From a virus (Duplodnaviria; Heunggongvirae; Uroviricota; Caudoviricetes), in the IMG/VR virus record IMGVR_UViG_2648501797_000005, positions 1 to 46,841 of that record: a stretch of DNA of 46,841 bases; one strand, given 5' to 3'. The position numbers and the translations under genes were made by a program. The notes below the pieces were generated by a model. That model saw only the letters and a list, made by a program, of their open reading frames with translations, did no database searches and was not told the DNA's origin. This document shows, piece after piece, positions 91-45,511 of this stretch (its first letter is position 1; each line of letters starts with the position of its first letter).

Positions 91-105
91 TTAGTATAAA
101 AAAGC
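91..105. other. att core (common O region) of the P-O-B' junction (attR in lambda convention)
   Basis: TTAGTATAAAAAAGC = reverse complement of lambda core GCTTTTTTATACTAA; flanked by B'-type sequence on the left and P-arm-type sequence on the right. Confidence 0.8.
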
Positions 106-250
106 TGAACGCGAAACAGCAAAAGCCAATAATATCAATGTGTTAAAATACATTTAGTCTAAAAAATAGACTGCATGATACTACAAAACACAACATATCC
201 AGTCACTATGAATCAACCACTTAGATGGTATTAGTGACCTGTAACAGAGC
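106..250. other. attP P arm (Int arm-type / IHF / Xis binding region), diverged from lambda near the core
   Basis: 186..248 is the reverse complement of lambda P-arm sequence CTGTTACAGGTCACTAATACCATCTAAGTAGTTGATTCATAGTGACTGGATATGTTGTGTTTT (from memory); 106..185 is AT-rich and only partly lambda-like. Confidence 0.6.
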
Positions 251-292
251 ATTAGCGCAAGGTGATTTTTTGTCTTCTTGCGCTAATTTTTT
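251..292 (+). terminator. sib/tI-like hairpin plus T-run just beyond the P arm
   Basis: ATTAGCGCAAG...CTTGCGCTAAT stem followed by TTTTTT on the + strand; position equals lambda sib relative to att. Confidence 0.45.
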
Positions 293-405
293 GTCAATGC
301 ACTGGGTTAGTTGAATTTACAACCATGCTCAGTATCTCGATAAGCGCAGGTAGATGATGCAGTGGTGGGCTGATTACATCGATGGTCGTGCAGGAGTGTA
401 AGCCA

Positions 406-1437
406 TTACGCGAATTCTTCCACGATCGCCATGCCAGTAGCACCATCACCACCGGTAAATGCCGTACCGGTAAACCCAAGGTCATACGCGCCACCACCAC
501 CGGATCCGGGAGCTGCGCCAGCAATACCGGCCTGAGAACCCGCCCGACCACCGCCGCCAAAATACGACGCCCCGCCGTTGCCCGTCAGAAGGCTTGAGCC
601 TGTCTGTCCATCTGAGCCGGTACCACCGTTGATCCTGATATCTCCGGTCGCCGCCGTACCTCCGGCGCCGCCGGCGGTATTGGACACGCCTGACTTCACG
701 CCGCCTTTCCCGCCAGGAGCTGAGAACAGGCTGGCAAACGAGGTAGCACCACCATCCGCACCACTTACTGCGCCAACTCCGCCCTTACCACCCTTTCCGA
801 CAGTAATCGCGTAAGAACTGGCAGCAGACAGGTCAACCCATACGATAATGGTCGCGCCCGCGCCGCCGCCAGCACCGGAGAAGGTTTCTGTATTGTTGGA
901 GGCCTGGCAGCCGCCACCGCCGCCACCGGCACCGGTCAACGTTACTTTTGCATAACGGGCCAGAGGAGATCGCGTATAGGTTCCGTTTGCATAGAAAGCT
1001 TTTGGAGCGCCAAGTGAACGCCCGACAAAACCAGAGGAATCAGATATTCCGAGGTTATAACGGGCTTCATTTATCGCATCCTCACCGGCATCTTTAATTT
1101 CTGACAGGTTATTGCTGATCTGCAGGAACGACAACAATGATCCGGCGGTCATTAAATTCGCGACAATGTCATTCGTTGACCATACGCGTGCCGTAGTTCC
1201 TTCCTGACCACGAATTACTGTCATCACGTCACCGGATACAGACGTGACGTGCATAATTTCAGAAATTGTTTTCGTGGCCGCGTCGGTTATCGTTAATTTG
1301 AAATAACTCTGCCCAGATACAGGGGACGGGAATAAAGACCCCGCTCCAGTACCCACGGTAATAACGGTAGCGGACGCGCTAATACCAGCAGCGAGAACAC
1401 TCTTTGCGTTATTATTGGCTAATAGCTTCAGCGCCAT
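406..1437 (-). CDS. tail fibre protein, glycine-rich C-terminal region, N-terminal domain shared with the 2918..5380 fibre
   Basis: 343-aa ORF; N-terminus MALKLLANNNAKS...SYFKLTITDAAT parallels MALTLLATNNAES...SYFKLTLTDAAT of the larger fibre; long Gly-rich stretches. Confidence 0.6.
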   Translation of the reverse strand: MALKLLANNNAKSVLAAGISASATVITVGTGAGSLFPSPVSGQSYFKLTITDAATKTISEIMHVTSVSGDVMTVIRGQEGTTARVWSTNDIVANLMTAGSLLSFLQISNNLSEIKDAGEDAINEARYNLGISDSSGFVGRSLGAPKAFYANGTYTRSPLARYAKVTLTGAGGGGGGCQASNNTETFSGAGGGAGATIIVWVDLSAASSYAITVGKGGKGGVGAVSGADGGATSFASLFSAPGGKGGVKSGVSNTAGGAGGTAATGDIRINGGTGSDGQTGSSLLTGNGGASYFGGGGRAGSQAGIAGAAPGSGGGGAYDLGFTGTAFTGGDGATGMAIVEEFA

Positions 1438-1448
1438 ATATACCCCAG

Positions 1449-1766
1449 TTAAATAATAGAATTATCGGAACGAACATCGCAGATAGTAAACGTCACGACG
1501 CCGATGACAGTAACATCGTCCAGGGCTTCGCCCTCGATCGCTTCACCATCTTCAGTAATCAGTGACTTTCCTCTCAGCGTGGCAAGCTCCGTCCCGCCGC
1601 CGTGCTGTATAAGTAGTTGGCTACCCTGCTTTGGCTTCAGGGAGATATCCAGTACAACGTAACCACCAGATCGCTCGAAAACTAGCGTGTTTGGGCCGAC
1701 ATTGCAGATCGAGTTAACAGACAACCTTTGCTCAACGTAGTCCGTCGCTGGTGAAGGGAATCCCAT
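1449..1766 (-). CDS. hypothetical protein (105 aa), second gene downstream of the LexA box
   Basis: ATG at 1766 overlaps the TAA of the upstream gene; GGAGGG Shine-Dalgarno; no family recognised. Confidence 0.45.
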   Translation of the reverse strand: MGFPSPATDYVEQRLSVNSICNVGPNTLVFERSGGYVVLDISLKPKQGSQLLIQHGGGTELATLRGKSLITEDGEAIEGEALDDVTVIGVVTFTICDVRSDNSII

Positions 1767-2005
1767 TAGATCACCCTCCCCATGTTGGCCATCATCCACA
1801 AACGGTTTTCGCTATGGTCGGTGGTTTTGTCGACAAAGTACGTCTGCTCTCTAGATATCCACGCATTAGCCTCTGCGTCGGTAAAGTGCAGCCCAAGCCG
1901 GCGCAGCGCTGACACAAAATCCTTTGTGTGCAGGTACTGGTAGCCTTTGGAGTTGCGCAATACCGACTCGCGGAAAGCCGCGGCGATGTCTGACTGTCGA
2001 AGCAT
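1766..2005 (-). CDS. hypothetical protein (79 aa), first gene downstream of the LexA box
   Basis: ORF with GGAGGG Shine-Dalgarno 7 nt upstream of ATG 2005; no family recognised. Confidence 0.5.
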   Translation of the reverse strand: MLRQSDIAAAFRESVLRNSKGYQYLHTKDFVSALRRLGLHFTDAEANAWISREQTYFVDKTTDHSENRLWMMANMGRVI

Positions 2006-2023
2006 GATCTGCCCTCCGATAAA

Positions 2024-2043
2024 TACTGTTTTTATATACAGTA
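2024..2043. promoter_or_regulatory. LexA (SOS) box overlapping a putative promoter for the 2005->406 gene set
   Basis: TACTGTTTTTATATACAGTA fits the CTGT-N8-ACAG consensus with perfect palindromic arms; sits in the 107-bp gap upstream of the minus-strand 79-aa gene. Confidence 0.6.
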
Positions 2044-2112
2044 GTTTTAAGTGAGCGGCAGATCAATGCTGGTTGTGGCTATCAATCCCTGCGTCAGTAG
2101 CAAACTATTGTT

Positions 2113-2916
2113 TTAGCTATAGCGCCCATTAACCAGGTTGATGTCATCTGAAAGAATCTCTAAGGCATTTTTACTTGTTAGCGTCAGGTCATCTAGTCGA
2201 CAGCGATACACTCCACCATTCACCGAGAGTGATGTCGTTGTTATTTCAGCATCCCCCAGCCGCGCCAGAGTAATTGCTGCCGGATAAGCAACAATCGCTG
2301 AGAATGAGCTCTCATACTTCAGTACGCTATCAAGGTAGAGGCGCGATTTCTGCATTGTCCCATCAGAAGAAACTACGCGCTCAACAGCAACCTGGTGGAC
2401 ATTCCCATCAAAAAGCCCTGACAGGAATGAGTACGCATTAATCACCTCTCCGTGGTTAATCACCTGCAATGCGCTCGCGGCAGTTGTTGAAGAGAATGTC
2501 GGGCGCAGCCAAAACAGCGTGTTCGCTGCGTTACTGGGTGTGCCATTTGTCAGAGCCACCAGGAATGAGTTGGAAGTAGCAGCAGCAGCACCTGTTACTT
2601 TCAGCCAGAACGTATACAGATAATTTGTCATCCCTGATGTGGCAATCATTGATGCCGGGAGATTAATTCCCTGCGCATGAACTGAGTTCAGTTCGTACCC
2701 ATTACCAGCTGCTGTCAGATCAGAGTTAGCTGTCGCGTTGTCGTCGACATAGCACATGTTTTTGATTTGCGCACCAGCAACGAGGTCTGCCCCAGCGCCA
2801 GACCATGTGTTATGGAATGAAATTAACCCCTTCGTCCCACTATTAATCGAGCCATCACGATAAAGAATATCGCCAGTTGCGACAATTACACCATTTCGTT
2901 TCTCAAACGGACCCAT
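2113..2916 (-). CDS. hypothetical tail-fibre-associated protein (267 aa)
   Basis: Starts immediately after the stop of the 820-aa fibre; Ser/Thr/Asn/Gly-rich. Confidence 0.45.
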   Translation of the reverse strand: MGPFEKRNGVIVATGDILYRDGSINSGTKGLISFHNTWSGAGADLVAGAQIKNMCYVDDNATANSDLTAAGNGYELNSVHAQGINLPASMIATSGMTNYLYTFWLKVTGAAAATSNSFLVALTNGTPSNAANTLFWLRPTFSSTTAASALQVINHGEVINAYSFLSGLFDGNVHQVAVERVVSSDGTMQKSRLYLDSVLKYESSFSAIVAYPAAITLARLGDAEITTTSLSVNGGVYRCRLDDLTLTSKNALEILSDDINLVNGRYS

Positions 2917-2917
2917 T

Positions 2918-5380
2918 TTACACCCACCCTAATAATTGAAATTTCTGGTAAATAAATTCAGCGTTTACGTCCGCGCCAGCCTGCAATGCATATTCAGGGG
3001 CGTTAGATGTTTCTTTCGATTGGCTAGGATGCAGTCCGTCATACTTCAATGAAGTTGGAGGGATATCATTTCCAAAGTCAGAAACGTCCTGAGAATATGC
3101 TGGATTATAGTTGTTTACGAAGTTTTCCCTCATATCAACACTATCAATTTCGCACCATAACTCAGGGTATTTCTTTTTAATCATGCTGTTTGATAACATG
3201 ACGTTTGCATAACCTGCTGATCCACGGGGCTCAACACTGCTGTTAAAATCAGGCAGGATAATAACCTTCTGCCCAAGAGATTTAAGGTATTCAACTACAC
3301 CAATAGTGTCGCTGAGAACCTGCATTGACTGGCTAATATTATTCCTTCCCATCCAGAAAATATTTATACATTCAGGGTGAAGAGGGAAAGATGTTCCTGC
3401 CGGAATTCCTCCGGTAATAGCACCAGTGGTCACCGGATCGCAAATGAATGGCACGGCAACAGGCACGTTAACCGCATCACCAGATGCATCACGGGTGAAT
3501 GTGGCATTGGTTCCATCCCATGAAAAATTGCCTGGAATGCCAGCCAGAGAACCGTGGAACGGCGTCGATGCTGCGGCGTTGGCAAAATAACTCAGTGGCC
3601 CCGGGTTTGCCGGAGAAAGAGTTACCGAACCGCTGGCAGGAATGCTGCCGCCAACTGGAACGTAATACGCTCTGCGCCCACCCTGAGCAGCAGCTGTGCC
3701 AACGCTTGTGCGTGAGCTTTTGCCAAAGTTATAGGCCGTGTAGCCGGTTAGCTCCTGCAGGCGTGTCAGCATACGGGGGTTATCAACCATTGAATGGCCC
3801 CACCCGCAAATGATCGGCCTGGCCATTACAGAGTGCTCAGTCAGATCATTGATATAGCAATAATACTGCCCACCCGGTGCGCGATTAGTCTCCCTGTCCG
3901 ATTGCCAGATAACCTTATCATCATCAACGCGTGGCAAGGTTTCATTACTGGATGTATTGGTTACACGAACCTGCTGACCTGTATCCCGATCAAACAGGAA
4001 AACCTGCTCATAGCCTCCTTTCTCTTCGCTAAATGCAATGTAATCAGGCTGACCTGAATTTGTCAGGTCCGATGATTTCAGCGACTCGATAACAACCAGG
4101 TTTTCAGATGTGGATGCCGAAATGTATCCACTATCTGCATACTCATCAGGTGAGAGAAACGTTACTGACTCTGGAAGAGGTGATAATGCGTCAGTAACAC
4201 CCTTTATCTCTGTAAAATCGCTTCCTTCAATTACAGCGTCATCAACGACAATTTTGCTAAAATAAATGGTGGTGCCTTTAATGCCAACAATAATTCTATT
4301 GTTTTCAGAAAAAGTTGCTGAGTCATACCCTGAATCCGAAAATTCAGATATATCGACAAAAGTCGAAGCCTGTAAAAAAGGAACGATTCCAAGAAGGCTT
4401 TGCCCAGAAATCAAAATATCATTTCCTGAAAGGATTTCAGCAGAAAATTCATCTGCGCTGATTTCCCCTGTTTTGATTTTTTGGAAGAACCACTCAACAC
4501 CTTTCCTGGATAGTAATATTTTTTTATTTTCATCTAGTATAGCCTCTTCCACCCCAGAATCTTTATATTCATCAGAAGAAAAGAATTCTGATGCCTGTGT
4601 TATATTTAACAAAGGGGAGTAAGGAGCAATTGATTCATCTACATACTTCTTAGATGGAATTTTCAGACCAGTGGGTTCAAGAGTGCCACTATTGTTAATT
4701 ACTTCAATAGCCAGTGCGCTGTCATCCGGGCTACGGTAAAATGCAGTAGCACCAGACAGAATATTGCCAGCATCGGCGTCGGCCTGTGCCGCCTCCAGCG
4801 TCGAAAATTCGCGGATGGTATTAGTTATAGACCCCTGTCCAGGGTACTCAGCAACCTCTTGTGCTACGCCTGAGTTATTTTTGTAATAACGGAAAGCAAG
4901 GACATTTCCTGTCCCCTGGGGAACGCGGAAGTATTGCCCGCTCGTCGTCGCTGCAAGGCCAGCCGCCGTATCAGCAAAGGTTGATTTATTGTCACCAAAC
5001 TCCGACGCGCTAAGTGCATATCCCTGTGCCTCTTCCGCTGAATCAGATGCCTGTTTTGCAAAATCAGCAATCACATTCAGCGTGTCAGCGGTCATCATGT
5101 TGGCAACCATGTCGTTGGCCGCCCACGCACGCGCCAGCGTTCCTTCTTGCGCACGTTCAATCGTGAAGATGTCCCCAGCCTTGGCTGTCACGTTCACGAT
5201 CTCAACCTGTGAGCCGGTGGCGGCATCGGTGAGAGTGAGCTTAAAATAGCTCTCGCCTGCCACAGCATCAGGGAACTCGGCACCAGTTCCTGCGCTAACG
5301 ATCAGCGACGTGTCGGTTGCGCTGATAGCAGAAGCCAGCGTGCTTTCTGCGTTGTTTGTAGCCAAAAGGGTTAGTGCCAT
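2918..5380 (-). CDS. tail fibre / tailspike protein (820 aa), possible esterase-like C-terminal domain
   Basis: GGAGGA Shine-Dalgarno before ATG 5380 (the 827-aa track ORF starts 7 codons earlier); shared N-terminal anchor with the other fibre; C-terminal DGLHPS resembles the SGNH block V motif (inference only). Confidence 0.65.
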   Translation of the reverse strand: MALTLLATNNAESTLASAISATDTSLIVSAGTGAEFPDAVAGESYFKLTLTDAATGSQVEIVNVTAKAGDIFTIERAQEGTLARAWAANDMVANMMTADTLNVIADFAKQASDSAEEAQGYALSASEFGDNKSTFADTAAGLAATTSGQYFRVPQGTGNVLAFRYYKNNSGVAQEVAEYPGQGSITNTIREFSTLEAAQADADAGNILSGATAFYRSPDDSALAIEVINNSGTLEPTGLKIPSKKYVDESIAPYSPLLNITQASEFFSSDEYKDSGVEEAILDENKKILLSRKGVEWFFQKIKTGEISADEFSAEILSGNDILISGQSLLGIVPFLQASTFVDISEFSDSGYDSATFSENNRIIVGIKGTTIYFSKIVVDDAVIEGSDFTEIKGVTDALSPLPESVTFLSPDEYADSGYISASTSENLVVIESLKSSDLTNSGQPDYIAFSEEKGGYEQVFLFDRDTGQQVRVTNTSSNETLPRVDDDKVIWQSDRETNRAPGGQYYCYINDLTEHSVMARPIICGWGHSMVDNPRMLTRLQELTGYTAYNFGKSSRTSVGTAAAQGGRRAYYVPVGGSIPASGSVTLSPANPGPLSYFANAAASTPFHGSLAGIPGNFSWDGTNATFTRDASGDAVNVPVAVPFICDPVTTGAITGGIPAGTSFPLHPECINIFWMGRNNISQSMQVLSDTIGVVEYLKSLGQKVIILPDFNSSVEPRGSAGYANVMLSNSMIKKKYPELWCEIDSVDMRENFVNNYNPAYSQDVSDFGNDIPPTSLKYDGLHPSQSKETSNAPEYALQAGADVNAEFIYQKFQLLGWV

Positions 5381-5403
5381 GTATCCTCCGGGATTAGGCA
5401 ATA

Positions 5404-5427
5404 AAAAAACCGCAAGCGCGGCCTTTT
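5404..5427 (-). terminator. short hairpin with 7-T run between baseplate genes and the fibre gene (weak, could act on either strand)
   Basis: CCGC-aagc-GCGG stem flanked by A7 and CCTTTT on the + strand. Confidence 0.25.
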
Positions 5428-5441
5428 AAATGGTGAATATT

Positions 5442-5708
5442 ATGAATAATGCTTCTATTGCTATTTTAAAAATACTTTTAGGAACGCTATCTACTTTATT
5501 AATACTCCTTTCTTGCGCCTTGCTTACTATTTTATTTGGATTTCTTTTTCAGCAAGGAATGCCGCCAATAGATATGATAAAAATGTCATCCATTTTGTTT
5601 TTATCAATAGTTGTGCTGCATATAATTTGTCAGTGCGTTAAATCTCATTTGTATATAACAATAGATAATCGAGATAAAAACCTAGTCAAATATCTCAACC
5701 GTGACTGA
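5442..5708 (+). CDS. small two-TM membrane protein encoded on the opposite strand in an AT-rich island
   Basis: ORF in strongly AT-rich DNA; GGTGA before ATG 5442 (ORF opens at 5430); two hydrophobic segments; 27-nt convergent overlap with the 5682..6386 gene. Confidence 0.4.
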   Translation: MNNASIAILKILLGTLSTLLILLSCALLTILFGFLFQQGMPPIDMIKMSSILFLSIVVLHIICQCVKSHLYITIDNRDKNLVKYLNRD

Positions 5709-6386
5709 CTGGTAAAACGGCATGTGCAGCAGGCCGCTATCCATGGCCTGCTTGAAGAAAATGGCGAACTCGAAATCCTCGGTGATCACAAAAGCCGTAT
5801 CCTTCTGGTTGTACTTCCTGGAGTTATAGGCCGATGCGTTATAGATAGCGCTCCGTGTGAACTGCCTCCGCCCCTTATAGATGGAAATCACGATACCGCC
5901 ATCCACAAACTGGATCGATATACTCCACCGCTGGTCGTTGAGGATGTCTGTGCCATTCACTCCCAACAGGAACCGCAGAATCCGCCGCTTTATCCATGGG
6001 ATAGAGAAATAGAAGCCGTCACCTTTGTAAAAATTCCAGGTCATGATCCGCTTAAAAAGGTCATCGGAGACAACAACCTGGTTAGACTGGTCAATCACCC
6101 GGTACTCATTGAATGCCAGTTGGTTAAATTCGAAAGTGTTATATGGGCCTATCTCCTGCTGTTCGCTGCTGGAAATCACCGGCGGCAACACGCCATAAAT
6201 GCCATGGGCAATCCATCGGAGCTGATCTCCGGTGTTGTAGTCACCGATGAAAATCGGCAGGTTGGCATTAACCATCCAGTCATAAATGCCCTGCGCCATC
6301 GAGTTATACGCAGTAAAAAACGCCCGCAGATTGTCATCGTCGTTGTATTGCGTATACATATACGACCGGATGATATCGTCCAGCAT
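5682..6386 (-). CDS. tail/baseplate protein (234 aa)
   Basis: Position between baseplate-like genes and fibre; size and order only. Confidence 0.45.
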   Translation of the reverse strand: MLDDIIRSYMYTQYNDDDNLRAFFTAYNSMAQGIYDWMVNANLPIFIGDYNTGDQLRWIAHGIYGVLPPVISSSEQQEIGPYNTFEFNQLAFNEYRVIDQSNQVVVSDDLFKRIMTWNFYKGDGFYFSIPWIKRRILRFLLGVNGTDILNDQRWSISIQFVDGGIVISIYKGRRQFTRSAIYNASAYNSRKYNQKDTAFVITEDFEFAIFFKQAMDSGLLHMPFYQSVTVEIFD

Positions 6387-6387
6387 G

Positions 6388-7806
6388 CTACGCCCCTGTT
6401 ACGATCACGCCATCCGACGCGATATAAAAATAACTGAACTTATCGCCGCTGATGATATTCGTCCCGGCATCCGGTGGCGTTATCACACCATTGACGGTGA
6501 CCACGACGTTTAGAGTGCTGATCAGCCCCATGTCGATTGTCGAGTTAATCGCCTGCAAGAATGCGTCTTTCAGGTTGTTAACGTTCAGCGGTTTCCCGGC
6601 GAATATGCCATTCACATACTGAATCGTAGGCGCCGAGACCAGAGAGGCGACCGTGGCATCAGTCAGGTAGTTAACACTTTCGGTCCCCCACTGATACGTC
6701 ACTGTGACCCGCTGCAGCAATGGTGTCACGAACGGGATCACGTAGTTATCAGGCCAGTCATTCACCGTCACGGTATTGTTTCTGACGTTCGGCGTCACCT
6801 CGCCGCCGCCTCCCCAGGTCCCGGATGAAGTGGTGTCAATTCCGATGGAAAAAGTGTGAGGAGACAGTACCGTCACGGTCAGAGGAACGTCATTAATGCC
6901 TGTCATCCCGGTAACGCCAGTGATCCGGATAACCTGGCCATCAGTGTAACCATGAGTCAGGTCTGTGCTGACGACGCCAGGATTTGCATTCGTGATCCCA
7001 GTTACATTCAGTGAACACCCTTTCAGCCGGCTGATATCCCCCGCAGACTTATAGAGCGCGCCAGCAATATCGTAAATATCACCGCCGGCGCACATGACTA
7101 TCCACTTATCCCCGTCCTGAATGACAGAAACCAGGCGCGCCTGCACGTTATCAAGGCTGGTGAGATATTGCCGGATAAATCCAGGATATCCCTGAACGGT
7201 AGCCATCTGCGCCTGCCATACGCGATCACGAAACTGATAGTTCGTTTCCGGATCAGCACCCGGAGTGCCGGCGATCGGGTTGGTGCAGGTGATGGTGACG
7301 TCAGACGGTAGACTGGATATGATCTGGTTAACCGTATTTACTGGCACCGCCCAGGTCCCGGTCTCCGTTCCCTCGCATGATACGCTGGCAGACACTCCAG
7401 ACGACGAGATAATCGTCGCATCACTGACTGAATAGGTATAGGTCCCATCAGAAACAATAAACCCCTGTGGGATAACAAATCCCGCCGGGCCGGAAAACTG
7501 AACCGGTACTGTTGTTGTGCCAGCCGTTTTCTGCCCAGGGATACCAGCCTGCTGTGCAAGAAGCTCCAGCATGGCCAGGTTAGCCTTTAGCGGCCCCACC
7601 GAGTTAATCAGGTCAACCCTCGCCTGATCGCAGACGATAAGTGCGCCGACATCAGTGCTGGCCACGTCTTCAATCAGAGAGCCAGGCAAATCAGTTGTGA
7701 GTCCCGGAGATAGCGCAATGGCCTGGGAAACGAGCTGTGCTCGTAGCTCTTCCGCCGTCAGAGGAACCGGGCCCGCTGACGTATAGCTGACTGGTAAATC
7801 GCTCAT
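6388..7806 (-). CDS. baseplate protein (472 aa), possibly baseplate-J-like
   Basis: Translationally coupled (4-nt overlap) within the tail gene run; size and order only. Confidence 0.4.
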   Translation of the reverse strand: MSDLPVSYTSAGPVPLTAEELRAQLVSQAIALSPGLTTDLPGSLIEDVASTDVGALIVCDQARVDLINSVGPLKANLAMLELLAQQAGIPGQKTAGTTTVPVQFSGPAGFVIPQGFIVSDGTYTYSVSDATIISSSGVSASVSCEGTETGTWAVPVNTVNQIISSLPSDVTITCTNPIAGTPGADPETNYQFRDRVWQAQMATVQGYPGFIRQYLTSLDNVQARLVSVIQDGDKWIVMCAGGDIYDIAGALYKSAGDISRLKGCSLNVTGITNANPGVVSTDLTHGYTDGQVIRITGVTGMTGINDVPLTVTVLSPHTFSIGIDTTSSGTWGGGGEVTPNVRNNTVTVNDWPDNYVIPFVTPLLQRVTVTYQWGTESVNYLTDATVASLVSAPTIQYVNGIFAGKPLNVNNLKDAFLQAINSTIDMGLISTLNVVVTVNGVITPPDAGTNIISGDKFSYFYIASDGVIVTGA

Positions 7807-34791: not shown

Positions 34792-35508
<717 letters not shown>

Positions 35509-38180: not shown

Positions 38181-38206
38181 GCCCTCCAGTGTGAGGGCAT
38201 TTTTTT
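38181..38206 (+). terminator. intrinsic terminator-like hairpin within the pL operon
   Basis: GCCCTC-cagtgt-GAGGGC followed by ATTTTTTTG. Confidence 0.4.
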
Positions 38207-38218
38207 GATGGAGGATAT

Positions 38219-39187
38219 ATGAGTGAAGTAACAGATTTAGTTGTTATTGAAAAAGCAAATGCAATGACTGTATTTCAGTCTGCCGACCAGATTGAAGAAA
38301 TCCTTCAAAGGGTTGAACGTGAAGTTATGTCCTTTGTGCCTGATATCACAACGGCAAAGGGCAGAAAGGAGATCGCTTCTCTGGCGTATAAAGTTGCGCA
38401 GACGAAAACATATCTCGATGGTCTTGGCAAAGACCTTGTTGCTGAACTGAAGGAAATTCCAAAGCTAATTGATGCCAACCGCAAGACAGTGCGTGATCGC
38501 CTTGATGAGCTGAAAGCCAAGGCGCGCCAGCCTCTTACTGATTATGAGGAGGAACAGGCACGGATTAAAGCCGAAGAAGAAGCTAAGGCAGCAGCTGAAG
38601 CTCTCGCAAAGCAAATTGAGTCTGACCATGAAATAGCGATTTTGATGGATCGCGAATTTGACCGCCAAAGAGAAGAGGCAAGACTCAAAGCGGAGCGGGA
38701 AAAGCGAGAGCATGAAGAACGCTTAAAAAGAGAAGCTGAAGAGAAAGCCAGAGCAGAAGCCGAAGCAAAGGCAAAAGCCGAAATTGAAGCAGCAGCAAGG
38801 CGAGAAGCAGAAGCTAAGGCCGCAGCGGAACGTGCAGAGCGTGAACGCATTGAAGCCGAGCAACGAGCACTGCGCGAAGCAAAAGAGGCAGCAGAACGAG
38901 CTGAAAGAGAAAAGCAGGCTGCAATTGAAGCAGAACGCAGAAAAGCACAGGAGGAGGCTGAACGAATCCGGCGCGAGGCTGAAGCAAAAGAGCAAGCCAG
39001 AATAGCAGAAGAAAAAAGAATCAAGGAAGAAGAAGAGCGTAGAGCAAAGGATAAAGCTCACCGGAAAGAAGTAAATAACAAAATACTTGCTGACCTTATC
39101 AAGGTTGGCGCATCAGAAGATGTTGCTAAAAATATCATAACAGCCATCGTAAAAGGCGAAGTATTCGCAACAAAAATAACCTACTAA
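38219..39187 (+). CDS. hypothetical protein (322 aa) with long Glu/Arg/Lys/Ala-rich coiled coil
   Basis: GGAGG Shine-Dalgarno; globular N- and C-terminal segments around a roughly 180-aa charged repeat region. Confidence 0.5.
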   Translation: MSEVTDLVVIEKANAMTVFQSADQIEEILQRVEREVMSFVPDITTAKGRKEIASLAYKVAQTKTYLDGLGKDLVAELKEIPKLIDANRKTVRDRLDELKAKARQPLTDYEEEQARIKAEEEAKAAAEALAKQIESDHEIAILMDREFDRQREEARLKAEREKREHEERLKREAEEKARAEAEAKAKAEIEAAARREAEAKAAAERAERERIEAEQRALREAKEAAERAEREKQAAIEAERRKAQEEAERIRREAEAKEQARIAEEKRIKEEEERRAKDKAHRKEVNNKILADLIKVGASEDVAKNIITAIVKGEVFATKITY

Positions 39188-39211
39188 TAAAACCAACATA
39201 AGGAACCACCC

Positions 39212-39343
39212 ATGATTTACGCAATCGCGGGAGGCGCTCGCATGGGTGCCTTCCAATTAAATGAATCTTTACTTGAACGAATCACCCGTAAATTACGTGA
39301 CGGATGGAAAAGAGTTGAGGTCTTATTATGCGCAATGAAATAG
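39212..39343 (+). CDS. cIII: CIII (FtsH inhibitor)
   Basis: MIYAIAGG...ESLLERITRKLRDGWKR central helix matches lambda CIII. Confidence 0.7.
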   Translation: MIYAIAGGARMGAFQLNESLLERITRKLRDGWKRVEVLLCAMK

Positions 39344-39480
39344 CCATCAATCACCAGATGCTTCGTGCAGCACAAAATAAAGCAGTAATAGCCAGATTTA
39401 TTGGTGATTCCAAAATGTGGCTTGAAGCAAATAAAGCGATGAAATCAGCTATCAACCTTCCGTGGTATCGCAGGAAATGA
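39328..39480 (+). CDS. Kil-like small protein (50 aa)
   Basis: Overlaps the cIII 3' end as lambda kil does; ARFIGDSKM resembles my recollection of lambda Kil. Confidence 0.4.
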   Translation: MRNEIAINHQMLRAAQNKAVIARFIGDSKMWLEANKAMKSAINLPWYRRK

Positions 39481-39555
39481 GTTTTACAGATAACTGGTCA
39501 GACGAAGAATTCATTCGTCAGATGAAAGAATTAATCGGTAACGAAGGAGATATTC

Positions 39556-39726
39556 ATGTCACTTGCAACCACAGTGAAGGAGAGCAAGTTACAGAGACGC
39601 ATGTACACGCAGAAAGCTCTCTGGTATCGCCATAATGGCGACCGCGAAGGAATGCGGGTATGCCTTAATTTGTCCCGAGTCGAAGTATTAAATCAGCGTT
39701 ATTTCCTTGGGCCGTGTCCATTCTGA
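39556..39726 (+). CDS. hypothetical small protein (56 aa)
   Basis: Strong AAGGAGAT Shine-Dalgarno; ends 8 nt before the annealing-protein gene. Confidence 0.35.
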   Translation: MSLATTVKESKLQRRMYTQKALWYRHNGDREGMRVCLNLSRVEVLNQRYFLGPCPF

Positions 39727-39734
39727 GGTGAATT

Positions 39735-40442
39735 ATGGATTTGAATAAATTCGATGAGCCATTCAGCCCTGAAGATATCGAATGGCGAATACAGCAAAGC
39801 GGTAAAACACGCGATGGCAAAGTGTGGGCTATGGTGCTGGCTTATGTCACGAACCGGGCAATCATGAAACGCCTGGACGATGTTTGCGGCAAAGCAGGAT
39901 GGCGCAATGAATACCGCGATATTCCCAACAACGGCGGCGTTGAATGCGGCATATCAATAAAGATTGATTCCGAATGGGTAACCAAATGGGATGCTGCTGA
40001 AAACACGCAGGTAGAAGCCGTCAAAGGTGGTCGTTCCGGTGCAATGAAGCGCGCTGCCGTTCAGTGGGGAATCGGTCGGTATCTGTATAACCTTGAGGAA
40101 GGTTTCGCACAAACATCTCTCGATAAAAAGCAGGGATGGCACAGGGCAAAACTCAAGGATGGAACAGGATTTTACTGGCTCCCTCCATCGCTGCCGGGAT
40201 GGGCAATACCAGCATCAGATAACAAACCATCACCAGAAAATACCAACCAGAAATCTCCATCGGTTGACTGCGAACAAATCCTGAAAGACTTCAGCGATTA
40301 TGTGTCAACAGAAACTGACAAGAAAAAACTCATCGAGCGTTATCAGCGTGACTGGCAATTAATGGCTGGCAACGAGGAGGCGCAGGCTAAATGCGTTCAG
40401 GTAATGAACATCAGAGTTAACGAACTAAAACAGGCGGCATAA
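39735..40442 (+). CDS. single-strand annealing protein, Rad52-like (Sak-type)
   Basis: EDIEWR...GWRNEY...KRAAVQWGIGRYLYNLEE pattern resembles Rad52-family phage proteins; occupies the bet position. Confidence 0.55.
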   Translation: MDLNKFDEPFSPEDIEWRIQQSGKTRDGKVWAMVLAYVTNRAIMKRLDDVCGKAGWRNEYRDIPNNGGVECGISIKIDSEWVTKWDAAENTQVEAVKGGRSGAMKRAAVQWGIGRYLYNLEEGFAQTSLDKKQGWHRAKLKDGTGFYWLPPSLPGWAIPASDNKPSPENTNQKSPSVDCEQILKDFSDYVSTETDKKKLIERYQRDWQLMAGNEEAQAKCVQVMNIRVNELKQAA

Positions 40443-40958
40443 ATGGCAAGCAGAGGCGTAAATAAGGTGATCATTATTGGTCGCCTTGGGCATGATCCAG
40501 AAATCAGATATTCACCATCAGGAACGGCATTTGCAAACCTTACAGTTGCTACGTCAGAACAATGGCGTGATAAGCAAACTGGAGAGCAAAAGGAGCAGAC
40601 GGAGTGGCACCGCGTGGTAATGAGCGGAAAACTGGCAGAAATTGCCAGCGAATATCTGCGAAAAGGCTCTGAGGTTTATCTTGAAGGAAAATTGCGGACA
40701 AGAAAATGGCAGGATCAAAGCGGACAGGATCGGTTCACTACCGAAGTCATCGTGGGCGTTGGTGGAACCATGCAAATGCTTGGTGGCAAGCAAGGAGGCA
40801 ATGAACAGTCTTCACCTCAGCGAAATGACGGTCAGCAACAAAGACAGCAACCTCAGCAGCAAGGGAATCACAGCGAACCACCTATGGATTTTGACGACGA
40901 TATCCCCTTTGCACCAGTAACTCTCCCTTTCCCTCGTCACGCTATTCACGCAATTTAA
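40443..40958 (+). CDS. ssb: single-stranded DNA-binding protein
   Basis: OB-fold N-terminus, Gly/Gln-rich linker, C-terminal DFDDDIPF tip. Confidence 0.9.
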
Positions 40959-40966
40959 GGACTTAC

Positions 40967-41515
40967 ATGAATCACTTGATGGTTGACCTTGAAACAATGG
41001 GCAACGGGCCATACGCGCCAGTTATTTCTATTGGGGCGGTATTCTTTGACCCGAATACCGGAGAAACAGGAGAAGAGTTCTCGGTAAATATCTCGCTTGA
41101 GTCATCAATGCGATATCGGGCGCGTCCTGACGCTTCAACGATTTTATGGTGGCTGGAACAGAGTGAAGAAGCCAGAAAATCGCTAACCAGCAACACTCAG
41201 GAGCTTTCAACGGCTCTTTCATGGTTATCTGAATTCATCATAAAGAACGCCAACCACAAACTCGTTCAGGTTTGGGGGAATGGAGCATCATTTGACTGCG
41301 TTATTCTCCGCAACAGTTATTCGCTGACAGGGCAGCCAGTTCCGTGGCAGTGGTGGAATGACCGCGACGTAAGAACAATCGTCGAACTTGGGAAGGTAAT
41401 AGGATTCGATCCTAAGCGAGATATGCCATTCAAAGGAACTCGCCACAACGCGCTTGATGATGCCATCCACCAAGCCAAATACGTTTCAGCGATCTGGAAA
41501 AAGTTAGCTAAATAA
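40967..41515 (+). CDS. 3'-5' exonuclease, DnaQ/DEDDh-like
   Basis: N-terminal MVDLETMG motif and C-terminal H...D motif (HNALDDA). Confidence 0.65.
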   Translation: MNHLMVDLETMGNGPYAPVISIGAVFFDPNTGETGEEFSVNISLESSMRYRARPDASTILWWLEQSEEARKSLTSNTQELSTALSWLSEFIIKNANHKLVQVWGNGASFDCVILRNSYSLTGQPVPWQWWNDRDVRTIVELGKVIGFDPKRDMPFKGTRHNALDDAIHQAKYVSAIWKKLAK

Positions 41516-41531
41516 TCAACAGGAGAAAACC

Positions 41532-41828
41532 ATGCCAGCGCCTCTATATGGTGCGGACGACCCGCGCCGCTGTTCCGGCAATTCCATATCGGAGGTGCTG
41601 GAAAATATCAAGAATAATCTCGACGCGTTTCTTGCTCTGCCACCAGAAACAAAAGAAGAACGGAAGTACCGACGCGATATACAACTCGCAGAAAAACAGG
41701 AAAAAGACCGAATAAACGAAACATCAATCCGACCATTCCGCAAATCCACATATACCCACTTCCCTGAATATATCGACCCGCGCCTGCGTAATTACCGCTC
41801 ACGCTATGGCGCTATCAGTAATGACTGA
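41532..41828 (+). CDS. hypothetical early protein (98 aa)
   Basis: ORF in the co-directional early-left operon. Confidence 0.4.
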
Positions 41829-42003
41829 GGAATTTACCATGAGAGGACTTGCATACAATCCCGGCATTCTTCCGGCAGAAATGATTATTCGCCAACGCGT
41901 AAAGCCAATGCCATCGAGAGAGGAATTGCTTAAGAGAAATTCTTTTCCGTCAGTAAATCAAAACAAATATCTGAATGCGATGTGGCGGAGTGGGAAGAAA
42001 TGA
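41806..42003 (+). CDS. hypothetical small protein (65 aa)
   Basis: Overlapping-start operon ORF. Confidence 0.3.
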
Positions 42004-42440
42004 AACAAATGTCACTAATTGAGATGGATGGTTTTCTGAAAGGTAAATGCATCCCACGAGATTTAAAGGTTAACGAAACAAACGCTGAATATCTGGTGCG
42101 TAAATTTGCTGAAGCGGAGGCCAAGTGCGCGGCGCTAGCAGCGGAGAATGCGGGGCTGAAGTCTGGCGATATGGACGAAATCAATGTTATCAACCGTGGA
42201 GGGCAGGCATATTGCGTAAAAGATGGAGTGCAAGTTAATCCCATGTATGCAAGAGGGTGGAATGACTATCGCGCAAAGTCTCTGCAATCAGACACCACAG
42301 CCACCGATGCTTTCCTGGCTGAAGTGTGGGCTCAGGGTGTGGAGATGCTCTACGCAAGCAGAGCGGCTCAGTGGTCTGATGAATTGTTAGCTGAGCTTAA
42401 TGAATTCGCCACTCAGCTTCGCGAAGGAGGTGCGGCATGA
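41982..42440 (+). CDS. hypothetical early protein (152 aa)
   Basis: Operon ORF. Confidence 0.4.
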
Positions 42441-42673
42441 GCAATCAGATTAATCCTGCCATAAGAATTGATGCAGATGGTAATGCCAGAGACGTCGACA
42501 ACGCTTACGAGGAGGGAATCTACGCCGCCGTAATAGGCCTCGATGTAACTGACAATCCGTATTCAACAGATGATCCACTCAACCGTAAGCTTTGGCTAAA
42601 GGCTTTCGCTGGGGTCAAAAGTGGAAAGATCAGAAGCGCCTCCCAGTTACGCAAAGGAGGTGAGCAAAAATGA
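42437..42673 (+). CDS. Rmf-fold-like small protein (78 aa)
   Basis: GIYAAVIG...NPY...W pattern resembles ribosome modulation factor-like phage proteins. Confidence 0.4.
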   Translation: MSNQINPAIRIDADGNARDVDNAYEEGIYAAVIGLDVTDNPYSTDDPLNRKLWLKAFAGVKSGKIRSASQLRKGGEQK

Positions 42674-42987
42674 CAATCACAAAACAACGAGTAGAAGAAA
42701 TCATATCCAGCATTGAAATGTATGGACATGGTGCAGGGTATACCGTTGACGAGGTTTATGACCTGGCTGTACTGGTGCTGAATTTATCAAATATCGCAAA
42801 CCTGAAGCGATACGAGCTTGATATGGATGGTTGTGACTCGTGCGGTCAGGATTGTGGCGCTGACATGACTGAAGATTCTGATGGCGATTATGTCCTGTTT
42901 GATGACGTGGTTAAGTTGTTTGAGTTTGATACAACCACTCAGAAGCTAGAAAGCCCAGCAAAGGAGGCAGCCAGTGAGCGAGATTGA
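42670..42987 (+). CDS. hypothetical acidic protein (105 aa)
   Basis: Operon ORF; Cys-rich DGCDSCGQDCG segment. Confidence 0.4.
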   Translation: MTITKQRVEEIISSIEMYGHGAGYTVDEVYDLAVLVLNLSNIANLKRYELDMDGCDSCGQDCGADMTEDSDGDYVLFDDVVKLFEFDTTTQKLESPAKEAASERD

Positions 42988-43513
42988 CTATCAGGCACTG
43001 CGTGAGGCGGCGCAGAACGCGAAAGATTTAGGTGGGATTAAGAATTACAAGCGAGGCGAGCAAGCTGTTGCCGAATTTGAGTCCCGGATAACGCCACACA
43101 TTGTGCTGGCGCTTCTGGATGAACGGGAAAGAAACCAGCAATACATCAAACACCGCGACCAGGAGAACGAGAATATTGCACTAACGGTTGGGAGGCTGCG
43201 TGTGGAGCTGGAAGCAGCAAAAAAACGCATAGCAGAACTGGAAGCCGAACCTGTAAGCCAAACTTACAAGTTGAACGAGCTGTCGGGCAACTCTCCGGTA
43301 ACTCCGGATGGTTGGATAAGCTGTAGTGAGCGGATGCCAGAGGACGGTCAGCACGTAATTATTTTATGTGATGGCGCATTCGTTCTTTATGCGCAATATC
43401 GAGACGGTGAGTTTTTTGATGTCGTCCGCAATGGTGAGGAGTTCTTCGAAACGCAGAGCCGCAATGTAACCGACTGGATGCCTCTACCAGAACCGCCGCA
43501 GGAGGTGAAGTGA
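42974..43513 (+). CDS. DUF551-like early protein (179 aa)
   Basis: C-terminal WMPLPEPP typical of DUF551 early-region proteins. Confidence 0.45.
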   Translation: MSEIDYQALREAAQNAKDLGGIKNYKRGEQAVAEFESRITPHIVLALLDERERNQQYIKHRDQENENIALTVGRLRVELEAAKKRIAELEAEPVSQTYKLNELSGNSPVTPDGWISCSERMPEDGQHVIILCDGAFVLYAQYRDGEFFDVVRNGEEFFETQSRNVTDWMPLPEPPQEVK

Positions 43514-43791
43514 TGGACTCCTTCGCGAAATATACGATTATTGACTGGATAGCATTCCTTCAGGTTTTGCTCATCTGGTTTTATATGGCTTACAGGAGTG
43601 GACAGTGGATTGTCAGTGTAGCCTGTAGAAAGGGATGGCGTTGGTGGAACCGAAAGAATAAAAAAGCACTGGCATTGGATTCGTTTTACGAAGCATTCAA
43701 TCTTAACAGCCTTCAGCCTGGTTCTGTCATTGTAGTCACCACTCAAAGCGGCATGACCATTCAGATTCATAAACCAAAAGAGGAAAAATGA
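43513..43791 (+). CDS. hypothetical membrane-associated protein (92 aa)
   Basis: GGAGGTGA Shine-Dalgarno; hydrophobic N-terminal segment. Confidence 0.4.
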   Translation: MDSFAKYTIIDWIAFLQVLLIWFYMAYRSGQWIVSVACRKGWRWWNRKNKKALALDSFYEAFNLNSLQPGSVIVVTTQSGMTIQIHKPKEEK

Positions 43792-43877
43792 TGTGGCCTA
43801 TATGTGTTAATTGCGGACGGATGTGCCTATCTGGATGGTGCCGAAAGTGCGACAAATGCACGAAGCAAAGACAATAA
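43788..43877 (+). CDS. Cys-rich micro-protein (29 aa), possible zinc ribbon
   Basis: MMWPICVNCGRMCLSGWCRKCDKCTKQRQ with GAGGA Shine-Dalgarno. Confidence 0.3.
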   Translation: MMWPICVNCGRMCLSGWCRKCDKCTKQRQ

Positions 43878-43949
43878 CAATCCTCGCACTCGCGGGGATT
43901 TCTTTTATCTGAACTCGCTACGGCGAGTTTTGTTTTATGGAGATGATAA

Positions 43950-44117
43950 ATGCACTTCCGAGTCACAGGTGAATGGAATGGAGAGCCATTCAACAGAGTT
44001 ATCGAAGCAGAGGACATCAATGACTGCTATGCCCACTGGATGCTGTGGGCGCAGATAGCACATGCAGACGTAACCAATATTCGAATTGAAGAACTGAAAG
44101 AACACCAAGCCGCCTGA
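43950..44117 (+). CDS. small protein (55 aa) upstream of xis, orf55-like position
   Basis: ORF followed immediately by a hairpin terminator. Confidence 0.35.
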   Translation: MHFRVTGEWNGEPFNRVIEAEDINDCYAHWMLWAQIAHADVTNIRIEELKEHQAA

Positions 44118-44130
44118 TGGCGGTTTTTTC
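44107..44130 (+). terminator. hairpin plus T6 upstream of xis
   Basis: CCGCC-tgat-GGCGG followed by TTTTTT. Confidence 0.35.
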
Positions 44131-44156
44131 TTGCGTGTAATTGCGGAGACTTTGCG

Positions 44157-44375
44157 ATGTACTTAACACTTCAGGAGTGGAACGCACGCCAGCGACGTCC
44201 AAGAAGCCTTGAAACAGTTCGTCGATGGGTACGCGAGTGCAGGATATTCCCTCCTCCGGTTAAGGATGGAAGAGAGTATCTGTTCCACGAATCAGCGGTA
44301 AAGGTTGACTTAAATCGACCAGTAACAGGTAGCCTTTTGAAGAGGATCAGAAATGGGAAGAAGGCGAATTCATGA
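44157..44375 (+). CDS. xis: excisionase
   Basis: 72 aa, matches lambda Xis as recalled. Confidence 0.9.
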   Translation: MYLTLQEWNARQRRPRSLETVRRWVRECRIFPPPVKDGREYLFHESAVKVDLNRPVTGSLLKRIRNGKKANS

Positions 44376-45423
44376 GCGCCGGGATTTACCCCCTAACCTT
44401 TATATAAGAAACAATGGATATTACTGCTACAGGGACCCAAGGACGGGTAAAGAGTTTGGATTAGGCCGAGACAGGCGAATCGCAATCACTGAAGCTATAC
44501 AGGCCAACATTGAGTTATTTTCAGGACACAAACACAAGCCTCTGACAGCGAGAATCAACAGTGATAATTCCGTTACGTTACATTCATGGCTTGATCGCTA
44601 CGAAAAAATCCTGGCCAGCAGAGGAATCAAGCAGAAGACACTCATAAATTACATGAGCAAAATTAAAGCAATAAGGAGGGGTCTGCCTGATGCTCCACTT
44701 GAAGACATCACCACAAAAGAAATTGCGGCAATGCTCAATGGATACATAGACGAGGGCAAGGCGGCGTCAGCCAAGTTAATCAGATCAACACTGAGCGATG
44801 CATTCCGAGAGGCAATAGCTGAAGGCCATATAACAACAAACCCGGTCGCTGCCACTCGCGCAGCAAAATCAGAGGTAAGGAGATCAAGACTTACGGCTGA
44901 CGAATACCTGAAAATTTATCAAGCAGCAGAATCATCACCATGTTGGTTAAGACTTGCAATGGAACTGGCTGTTGTTACCGGGCAACGAGTTGGTGATTTA
45001 TGCGAAATGAAGTGGTCTGATATCGTAGATGGATATCTTTATGTCGAGCAAAGCAAAACAGGAGTAAAAATTGCCATCCCAACAGCATTGCATGTTGATG
45101 TTCTCGGAATATCAATGAAGGAAACACTTGATAAATGCAAAAAGATTCTTGGCGGAGAAACCATAATTGCATCTACTCGTCGTGAACCGCTTTCATCCGG
45201 CACAGTATCAAGGTATTTTATGCGCGCACGAAAAGCATCAGGTCTTTCCTTCGAAGGGGATCCGCCAACCTTTCACGAGTTGCGCAGTTTGTCTGCAAGA
45301 CTCTATGAGAAGCAGATAAGCGATAAATTTGCTCAACATCTTCTCGGGCATAAGTCGGACACCATGGCATCACAGTATCGTGATGACAGAGGCAGGGAGT
45401 GGGACAAAATTGAAATCAAATAA
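44353..45423 (+). CDS. int: integrase (tyrosine recombinase)
   Basis: 356 aa, near-identical to lambda Int as recalled; overlaps xis 3' end as in lambda. Confidence 0.95.
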   Translation: MGRRRIHERRDLPPNLYIRNNGYYCYRDPRTGKEFGLGRDRRIAITEAIQANIELFSGHKHKPLTARINSDNSVTLHSWLDRYEKILASRGIKQKTLINYMSKIKAIRRGLPDAPLEDITTKEIAAMLNGYIDEGKAASAKLIRSTLSDAFREAIAEGHITTNPVAATRAAKSEVRRSRLTADEYLKIYQAAESSPCWLRLAMELAVVTGQRVGDLCEMKWSDIVDGYLYVEQSKTGVKIAIPTALHVDVLGISMKETLDKCKKILGGETIIASTRREPLSSGTVSRYFMRARKASGLSFEGDPPTFHELRSLSARLYEKQISDKFAQHLLGHKSDTMASQYRDDRGREWDKIEIK

Positions 45424-45496
45424 TGATTTTATTTTGACTGATAGTGACCTGTTCGTTGCAACAAATTGATAAGCAATGCTTTTTTATAATGCCAAC
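45424..45496. other. attP P' arm
   Basis: Reverse complement of lambda P' arm ...GCATTGCTTATCAATTTGTTGCAACGAACAGGTCACTATCAGTCAAAATAAAATCATTA. Confidence 0.7.
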
Positions 45497-45511
45497 TTAG
45501 TATAAAAAAGC
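45497..45511. other. att core of the B-O-P' junction (attL in lambda convention)
   Basis: TTAGTATAAAAAAGC followed by AGGCTTCAA (B arm of attB-lambda). Confidence 0.8.

Follow-up and report, generated by a model that had tools for sequence, protein, structure and literature searches.

The stretch of DNA considered here, the 46,841-nucleotide (nt) IMG/VR virus record IMGVR_UViG_2648501797_000005 (hereafter the window), contains a prophage of ~45.4 kb that is bracketed by two 15-bp lambda att cores, at 91-105 and 45497-45511. The core GCTTTTTTATACTAA has just two exact copies in the window, each present as its reverse complement, and the extent of 91-45511 given in a preliminary description of this DNA, which was made from the sequence alone, proves exact to the base. 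The left flank CGCTCAAG is the B' arm of attB on the ybhB/bioA side and the right flank AGGC is the B arm on the ybhC side, the integration site being the lambda attB of Escherichia coli between ybhB/bioA and ybhC. Between the cores the lambdoid gene order is kept without exception (att-int-xis-recombination-cIII-N-cI-cro-cII-replication-nin-Q-lysis-virion) with a single copy of each function, there being one repressor, one lysis cassette and one terminase. No siphovirus virion genes and no tRNA genes were found in the window, and an Rfam scan of its whole length at gathering thresholds gave no matches. The preliminary description had the element as a mosaic in which lambda integration, immunity and lysis genes are joined to virion, replication and recombination modules that are not those of lambda, and the gene-by-gene identities bear this out. 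The virion genes, which it had placed in some other lineage, are identified here as the core of the Felixviridae, the family of phages Chronis and RothC/D.

The evidence for this identification is collinear over ~19 kb of sequence (5682-24677), where 23 proteins are 85-100% identical at the amino acid (aa) level to those of Klebsiella phage vB_Kpn_Chronis, with the TerS gene coming next. The lengths of the virion proteins are those of the Chronis proteins, the tape measure excepted, and nucleotide identity to Chronis is 95-97% over 5686-10923 and 11591-24677. These 23 proteins follow the order of the Felixviridae core (RothD gp1-gp24, Chronis gp1-gp21), and both of the family-specific primers that amplify RothD gp7 in the polymerase chain reaction (PCR; PMC12629751) match without a mismatch, at 21044-21064 and 19477-19497, to give an in-silico amplicon of 19477-21064. 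The Felixviridae, a family recognised in 2025 in the ICTV taxonomy, are temperate phages in which the structural core is conserved and little else is (PMC12629751, PMC12451628).

All of the virion genes are on the minus strand. The baseplate and tail assembly genes (5682-13377) include baseplate J (6388-7806; Baseplate_J, E=5.9e-12), the baseplate hub (8845-9882; phrog_196) and a tape measure with a lytic transglycosylase (10864-12747), with further matches to phrog_2276 and phrog_873 and 85-100% aa identity to Chronis across the region. The tail tube (13381-13818) and tail sheath (13822-15216; phrog_205, E=4.8e-51) that follow in 13381-15216 are 97-99% identical to their Chronis counterparts. 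Sheath, tube and baseplate together form the gene set of a myovirus, and a contractile tail, which the preliminary description had thought likely, is a well supported prediction because the module is homologous to that of the Yersinia myovirus vB_YenM_29.18, which has been characterised by electron microscopy (EM). The head and neck genes (15221-23334) comprise the major capsid gene (17554-18585), a NUDIX-DUF2213-coiled-coil protein (19475-21088), a head morphogenesis protein (21101-21922) and a portal of the DUF1073 type (21919-23334), with matches to Phage_portal_3 (E=2.2e-20), NUDIX (E=2.9e-16), DUF2213, phrog_324 and phrog_264 and with 89-100% aa identity to Chronis. Beyond them lie the two terminase genes (23346-25421), TerL at 23346-24677 and TerS at 24681-25421, matched by Terminase_6N (E=3e-8) and phrog_370 (E=2.2e-84); TerL is 100% and TerS 71% identical to that of Chronis.

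The integration functions are at the opposite end and are those of lambda. The int gene (44353-45423, plus strand) encodes an integrase 98.6% identical to that of lambda, with five substitutions, none of them at a catalytic residue, and it is preceded by xis (44157-44375, plus strand; 97.2%), with the CII site of pI at 44131 identical to lambda 29104. The P' arm and attL core occupy 45424-45511 (core 45497-45511), where P' is 100% identical to lambda and the core exact. At the other end the attR core (91-105, the 15-bp O region of lambda) is likewise exact and is followed by the P arm (106-296, minus strand), a divergent allele of lambda type that is 88% identical over 210 nt to lambda 27742-27534, with the ~70 nt nearest to the core strongly diverged. 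Alignment to lambda places P2 at ~200-209, P1 at ~230-242 and the sib/tI hairpin at ~249-292; P1, P2, X1, the H2 IHF consensus and the hairpin are retained and X2 carries three changes. The earlier statement that the att arms are identical to lambda or nearly so is therefore good for P' and the cores and too generous for the P arm. The identical P-arm allele adjoins the core in 9 IMG/VR contigs, and it is a common one.

The immunity core (34494-35508) has 97.7% nucleotide identity to lambda and consists of cro (34494-34694, minus strand), OR1-3 with pR and pRM (34721-34784) and cI (34795-35508, plus strand). CI is 99.2% identical to lambda with just two differences, T3A and K71N, and Cro is 98.5% identical. 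Neither substitution falls on a residue needed for CI autocleavage, these residues being well established for lambda CI. OL1, OL2, OL3, OR2 and OR3 are identical to lambda, with OR1 having one G>A change that is also the allele of HK97 and HK106. The description of CI, Cro and the operators as lambda-identical or nearly so thus stands for the proteins and for five operators, with the sixth altered at one position, and the identity of CI, Cro and operators would place the prophage in the lambda immunity group by the criterion of sequence; a literature search on homoimmunity between HK97 and lambda gave nothing of use. By the same measure these regulatory parts are more precisely of HK97/HK106 type, as the CII, Cro, CI, gp48 and N proteins are 100% identical to those of HK97 and gp49 is 99% identical.

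On either side of this core the genes depart from lambda. cII (34060-34356, minus strand) is of HK97 type, its product being 100% identical to HK97 CII and 35% identical to lambda CII. A CII site for pRE, TTGCTGTAACTTGC, is found at 34334 and shows the TTGC-N6-TTGC motif, sites of which occur at the expected positions of pRE, paQ and pI. The leftward control region (37021-37715, plus strand) contains OL3-OL1 with pL (37021-37083), the nutL boxB (37152-37166) and the N gene (37332-37715). This boxB, GCGCTGACAAAGCGC, is identical to the nutL boxB of P22, and the nutR boxB, TCGCTGACAAAGCGA at 34441-34455, has the same loop. N is 100% identical to HK97 gp47 and HK106 gp43 and matches 41/100 residues of P22 gp24, with the C-terminal 17 residues nearly identical and with an N-terminal arginine-rich motif of GNSRSRRRERLKAKA that compares with GNAKTRRHERRRKLA in P22. 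The suggestion that N and boxB are of the P22 type is borne out by both the boxB sequence and the arginine-rich motif. With the backbone being of the HK97/HK106 type, the combination of lambda immunity, a P22-class N and a DnaB-type helicase is therefore one that was already known.

The late regulatory and lysis genes, all on the minus strand, again carry a lambda stamp. Q (27089-27712) is 99.5% identical to lambda Q and stands at the end of a nin region (27089-31504) that encodes NinI, NinG, NinF, a NinX-like protein, NinE, a NinC-like protein with a PAPS_reduct domain, a Dam methylase and NinB, with NinI 95.9% and NinB 100% identical to lambda; the CII site of paQ is at 27412. The pR'/qut region, a short leader and tR' span 26956-27046, with the promoter (TTGACT-17-TAAATT) at 27046-27018 and the terminator at 26984-26956. 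The promoter has 2 mismatches to lambda and the match to lambda ends at the start of the leader, the leader and tR' being of the short P22/HK97 type, not the 194-nt 6S RNA of lambda; the whole of pR', leader and terminator is close to P22 and HK97, and roughly its first 75 nt are the same as in P22. The lysis cassette (25479-26726) contains the S holin, the R endolysin, Rz and an embedded Rz1 (25520-25726), with S and R each 98.1% and Rz 61% identical to lambda. The candidate Rz1 is divergent from that of lambda, yet has a lipobox and a proline-rich region. Q, S and R had been called lambda-identical or nearly so along with pR', which is accurate for the three proteins and overlooks that the sequence downstream of pR' belongs to the P22/HK97 type. 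It is inside Rz, at ~25476-25699, that the lambda-type lysis cassette meets the Felix-type module.

The replication module (31563-33879, minus strand) is made up of a DnaB-type helicase (31563-33014; DnaB and DnaB_C domains) and an O-like initiator (32989-33879; phrog_345), which are 99% and 98% identical to HK106 respectively. Inside the initiator gene there are 11-bp iterons, TTGTCCAACGG, with five exact copies and one degenerate copy arranged in two groups over 33396-33493, and these are followed by an AT-rich stretch that is also inside the gene. The pL operon (37832-43791, plus strand) encodes Ral (98.5% identical to lambda), a 322-aa protein, CIII, Kil, recombination proteins, an Ea22-like protein and small open reading frames (ORFs). 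Its recombination genes encode a Rad52-type annealing protein (39735-40442; Rad52_Rad22, E=4.9e-26), SSB (40443-40958; E=1.3e-38), a 3'-5' exonuclease (40967-41515; Rv2179c-like, E=5.8e-73) and Abc2 (41532-41828), with the block being 95-97% identical at the nucleotide level to IME10, Sf6 and CUS-3. An O-like initiator with iterons of its own, and a DnaB helicase and Rad52-like annealing protein from outside lambda, had all been recognised beforehand, and the domains and repeats agree. The same is so of the absences that were pointed out, namely of a lambda cos site with an Nu1/A-type terminase and of the Red genes: tblastn with lambda Nu1, A, exo, bet, gam, N, O, P, rexA/B and sieB gave no match here at E<=1e-3, and the search of the window for lambda cos returned a single chance-level match with 2 mismatches.

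At the left end of the prophage are the genes that probably determine which receptors it can use, together with the remains of a second integrase. The host-range region (2113-5401, minus strand; phrog_19652 and tail-fibre PHROGs) encodes an 827-aa tail fibre or spike (2918-5401) and a 267-aa protein downstream. Only the N-terminal 321 aa of the fibre resemble Chronis gp23, at 64% identity, and an exact-protein look-up for the 267-aa tail-associated protein returned no record. Next to the att site is an accessory block (406-2005, minus strand) with a glycine-rich fibre-like protein of 343 aa (406-1437; Gly_rich_2, E=8.5e-14, and tail-fibre PHROGs), a HumD/UmuD'-like protein of 116 aa (1449-1799; NCBIfam HumD, E=1.3e-12, which is below the curated cutoff) and a 79-aa ORF. 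The products of 406-1437 and 2918-5401 share a homologous N-terminal domain of ~110 aa, which in the first has 68% and in the second 59% identity to the N-terminus of the Yersinia phage tail fibre, and this suggests two alternative fibres that would use one baseplate anchor. In the assembly collection 952 blocks list the 343-aa protein in exactly this form, and the block with the HumD-like gene beside attR is widely shared with Klebsiella prophages at 80-93% nucleotide identity. Window 87-2066 is also 95.6% identical to the siphoviral lambdoid records PDP110P1/PDP110P2, where it is again beside a lambda attP, and it adjoins a different myovirus tail module at the lambda attB in CP151050. As the block is found with both siphoviral and other myovirus modules, it therefore moves independently of virion type.

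Directly beside the lambda P arm, which ends at 296, are the last 27 codons of an integrase gene of IntS/P4 type (315-395, plus strand), with an in-frame stop. This fossil was found by tblastn with Chronis gp27, to which it is identical at 26/27 positions (E=5e-12). Other E. coli genomes have an intact 386-aa integrase after this glycine-rich fibre gene, at the yfdC-mlaA-fadL locus. Because the fossil lies beside the P arm and an intact integrase occupies this position elsewhere, it appears that the particle module at one time had an IntS/P4-type integrase travelling with it, which was replaced by the attP-int-xis of lambda.

It is apparent that the joints between these modules are not peculiar to this prophage. 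At least 80% of the left half is present at 97-98% identity in 33 of 5,426 complete E. coli genomes, and the TerL-TerS-Rz-R joint is found in 18 complete E. coli genomes with a coverage of at least 80% and an identity of 96.5-98.6%. Many contigs carry the exact TerS protein, always between lambda-type S/R and Felix-type virion genes, with the Q, replication and repressor genes of these contigs varying; two of them have a 237-aa repressor and a 66-aa Cro (Pfam Cro) of the lambda type. In ETEC4091 (NZ_CP122617) an element of this architecture, with lambda Int/Xis, lies between ybhB and ybhC, and 64.6% of the prophage aligns to that element at 97.3% identity; the repressor, Q and Erf of the element are different and its TerS gene is frameshifted. 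Judging from the flanking genes, NZ_CP185938 and STEC346 are apparently also inserted between ybhB and ybhC with lambda Int/Xis. The E. coli prophages of this architecture (these three and contigs L023-L032) share the joint of Felix-type virion genes to S/R and differ from one another in how repressor, Q, replication and recombination genes are combined. No compared relative matches more than 87% of the compared stretch of the window, and among phage records coverage reaches at most 78% for the left half and 52% for the right half. With the joints recurring and no relative exceeding 87%, the exact combination is therefore new and the kind is common. No named phage, siphovirus or otherwise, matches the whole element.

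One further contig bears on the mobility of the element. Contig L011 (IMGVR_UViG_2648501797_000001, 1-9544, 9.5 kb), a record derived from an isolate genome, is 99.6-99.7% identical to parts of the window; its sequence runs from 3325 to 87 of the window, through a single core, and on from 45511 to 39212, which makes a P-core-P' attP junction. Read in this way it is the attP form, excised or in a virion, of a near-identical phage, which suggests that such elements excise or circulate and is no proof of activity for this copy.

Comparison with named phages places the prophage between several groups. With Chronis (Chronisvirus chronis) and RothC/RothD (Nakavirus sapi) it shares the collinear virion core, the lambdoid order and a temperate lifestyle. 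Just 48.5% of the prophage aligns to Chronis, however, and the blastn-based similarity of ~0.45 is under the 70% threshold for the genus and near the 45% threshold for a subfamily that is used in the supplement of PMC12629751. Chronis differs in immunity, N, Q, S/R lysis genes, distal tail fibres and host, its integrase is of IntS/P4 type whereas that of the prophage is lambda Int, and its recombination genes are YqaJ/GamL instead of the Rad52 type. The Yersinia phage vB_YenM_29.18 has a collinear virion at 61-92% aa identity (sheath 80%, tube 78%, capsid 92%, TerL 88%) and a lambdoid early region, with an integrase, immunity and lysis genes that differ from those of the prophage and with lambda O/P-type replication and RecT/exonuclease VIII recombination, unlike the prophage. 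This phage, of the group 1 temperate Yersinia myoviruses, is inducible by mitomycin C and has a contractile tail by EM (PMC9224151).

On the early side, lambda shares the attP core, P' arm, Int, Xis, CI, Cro, operators, Q, S, R, NinB, NinI and Ral at 95-100% identity and inserts at the same site, whereas other sequences stand here in place of its N/nut, CII, O/P, Red, rexAB, sieB, 6S leader, cos, Nu1/A and entire siphovirus virion module. There are 16 segments, adding up to 8.5 kb, that align to lambda with a mean identity of 94%, which is the sharing of segments expected among lambdoid phages; with 18.6% aligned and a similarity of ~0.17 the prophage is far from the 70% required for membership of Lambdavirus. 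HK97 and HK106 (Hendrixvirinae) share long segments at 96-97% identity as well as the lambda-type int/xis/att, Q, S, R and the OR1 and pR' alleles, but they are siphoviruses whose HK97-type capsid, tail and TerL (TerL_ATPase family) have no counterpart in the prophage, and their recombination module is of Erf type, unlike the Rad52 type here. Lambdoid myoviruses are themselves long known. SfI and SfV of Shigella have a lambdoid early region and a contractile tail, package by cos and integrate at a tRNA site (PMC3636060); they are a precedent for the present prophage, which differs in its use of lambda attB, and what is new is the exact combination of modules. SfV/SfI gave no match in the phage-record searches, a result that does not extend to a direct comparison of virion genes.

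How such a genome might operate can be proposed from its parts. The HK97-type lambda-immunity block (CI, Cro, OL and OR) would keep the prophage repressed, with repression released by RecA-stimulated cleavage of CI. Lysogeny would be established by the HK97-type CII acting at the TTGC-N6-TTGC sites of pRE, paQ and pI. On induction the HK97-type N, of the P22 boxB class, would antiterminate at nutL and nutR, and the HK106-type O-like initiator would bind the 11-bp iterons in its own gene and recruit the DnaB-type helicase of the phage. Lambda Q, acting at the P22/HK97-type pR'/qut, may then allow read-through of S-R-Rz/Rz1 into the ~20 kb of virion genes, so that expression of the particle genes would be under a lambda-type switch. 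The virion produced would have the Felixviridae core of the Chronis/RothD type, with a TerL of the T4/P22 family, the capsid and a contractile tail, its genes being followed by receptor-binding genes specific to E. coli.

It is considered probable, at roughly 85%, that the window holds one complete temperate lambdoid-mosaic phage genome of ~45.4 kb that can be expected to work as a standard lambdoid phage. Module identities, att structure and intactness are properties that can be read from the sequence, and the last of these, which had earlier been put forward as an appearance, is upheld by the identical att cores, the full-length int and xis, the arm sites, the uninterrupted essential genes and the full length of each ORF compared with homologues in plaque-forming phages. 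There are points that weigh against this reading. The P arm is just 88% identical to lambda, diverging near the core, and X2 is altered, which may bear on the efficiency of excision; inactivating point mutations that cause no truncation are possible, and the inducibility of this strain is a prediction. The exact combination is absent as a whole from the phage and complete E. coli collections that were searched. Pfam recognises neither the sheath nor the tube, and a search of solved structures with the sequences of the sheath and of TerL found no match, so that the myovirus call depends on the PHROG profiles and on homology to a phage characterised by EM. Some of these points would also be in keeping with a recently immobilised defective prophage, in which missense changes or incompatibility between modules block induction, excision or assembly, the candidate faults being lambda Int/Xis working on a divergent P arm and lambda Q working over a foreign virion operon. 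As well as the P arm and its X2, a TerS just 71% identical to that of Chronis and the frameshift in the TerS of ETEC4091 could be taken in this sense, and the KlebPhaCol authors consider that many felixvirus prophages could be deteriorating (PMC12629751). A defect of this kind is nevertheless unlikely: none of the ORFs compared is truncated, neither att core has a change, and the variants of OR1 and pR' also occur in HK97, HK106 and P22, which are viable phages. The P-arm allele is common, many genomes conserve the exact TerS protein, and there exists a 99.6%-identical contig in the attP form.

That the window might instead be an artefact, of tandem prophages at attB or of an assembly chimera between a lambda/HK97-like and a Felix-type prophage, is very improbable. 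GC content is ~0.44-0.50 over the early genes and ~0.54-0.61 over the virion genes, and this shift and the fragment of a second integrase might be expected of such an event, but that fragment is of 27 codons with a stop, there are only two att cores, and the repressor, lysis cassette and terminase are single and unaccompanied by siphovirus virion genes. Moreover, the lysis-terminase joint is found in at least 18 independently assembled complete genomes and the joint of P arm to fibre gene recurs in other genomes and in phage records, and the artefact was rejected. More room is left for doubt over packaging, where the preliminary description had favoured a pac-type terminase. Its contractile tail is well supported; headful packaging is plausible, on the family of TerL. 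TerL shares a Pfam family with gp2 of the headful phage P22 and is in neither the lambda gpA family nor that of HK97 TerL, assembly of the Chronis genome gave a circle (PMC7163006), as terminal redundancy would allow, and a lambda cos sequence is lacking. The membership of TerL in Terminase_6N is weak at 34 bits, when P22 gp2 scores 163 bits, that family is not exclusive to headful packagers, and TerL has no direct similarity to P22 gp2 at E<=1e-4. Publications on Chronis and the Yersinia phages give no packaging data and the text of the RothD paper does not mention headful packaging. The lambdoid myoviruses SfI and SfV use cos (PMC3636060), which would favour packaging here from cos or another specific site; that alternative is nevertheless somewhat unlikely.

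Several genes that take no part in these arguments may still be of interest. The 537-aa protein of the head region (19475-21088, minus strand) is a fusion of a NUDIX hydrolase, DUF2213 and a long coiled coil rich in lysine, glutamate and alanine, with the catalytic box intact (G-X5-E-X7-REVLEETGY). It occupies the slot where a scaffold or protease would be expected and is 100% identical to Chronis gp4 despite the different hosts, its gene being the one used as the RothD gp7 PCR marker; it may be an enzyme that is targeted into the capsid. Between ninB and the PAPS-reductase NinC-like gene there is a complete Dam-family N6-adenine methyltransferase (30522-31109, minus strand; Pfam Dam, E=9.8e-65), which is 97% identical to the HK97 methyltransferase. 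The slot of rexAB is filled by homologues of HK97 gp49/gp48 (35793-36838, plus strand) with 99.8% nucleotide identity to HK97 and HK225, followed by an inverted repeat at 36841-36864 that the terminator scan lists on the minus strand. These two had no Pfam or PADLOC match and one sub-threshold NCBIfam match, and a search of the literature on their function found nothing relevant; by their position downstream of cI they are candidates for exclusion or defence genes expressed in the lysogen. The 322-aa protein of the pL operon is annotated as TolA-like in relatives. Together with the rex-slot genes and several small ORFs it had no PADLOC match, nor was there a Pfam match for the three of these that were run, with NCBIfam giving sub-threshold matches only (HumD/UmuD'-like, Rmf/CrpP-like and sll1863-like).

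The prophage is best seen as a natural hybrid; such shuffling of modules is ordinary for phages like lambda, and the prophage opens no new biological question. Its interest is that Felixviridae particle genes, which have so far been cultured from no hosts other than Klebsiella and Pantoea and have collinear relatives in Yersinia, are here found under a lambda-type circuit, which is understood better than any other in biology, at the lambda att site. It is possible, although the claim is made tentatively, that this is a fully active E. coli myovirus, homoimmune with lambda and using lambda Int at attB, and it would then be the family's first cultivable representative in E. coli, because this virion module occurs in none of the cultured Escherichia phages of the searched collection. 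If inducible it could be a convenient model for the Felixviridae type of virion, and if the claim is true it would provide a tractable system, with the tools of lambda and a K-12 host, for a poorly studied virion with an invariant NUDIX-scaffold fusion protein. The integrase fossil and the recurrent lysis-terminase joint indicate that integration and early modules are swapped between phages of different families, and this swapping is a caution for classification that is based on the virion core. With 96-100% identity to lambda, HK97 and HK106 across its early half, the prophage should recombine freely with them, and were it active, this would be direct evidence that the Felixviridae, which are defined by their virion, and the siphoviruses of the lambda and Hendrixvirinae groups draw on one interbreeding gene pool in E. 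coli.

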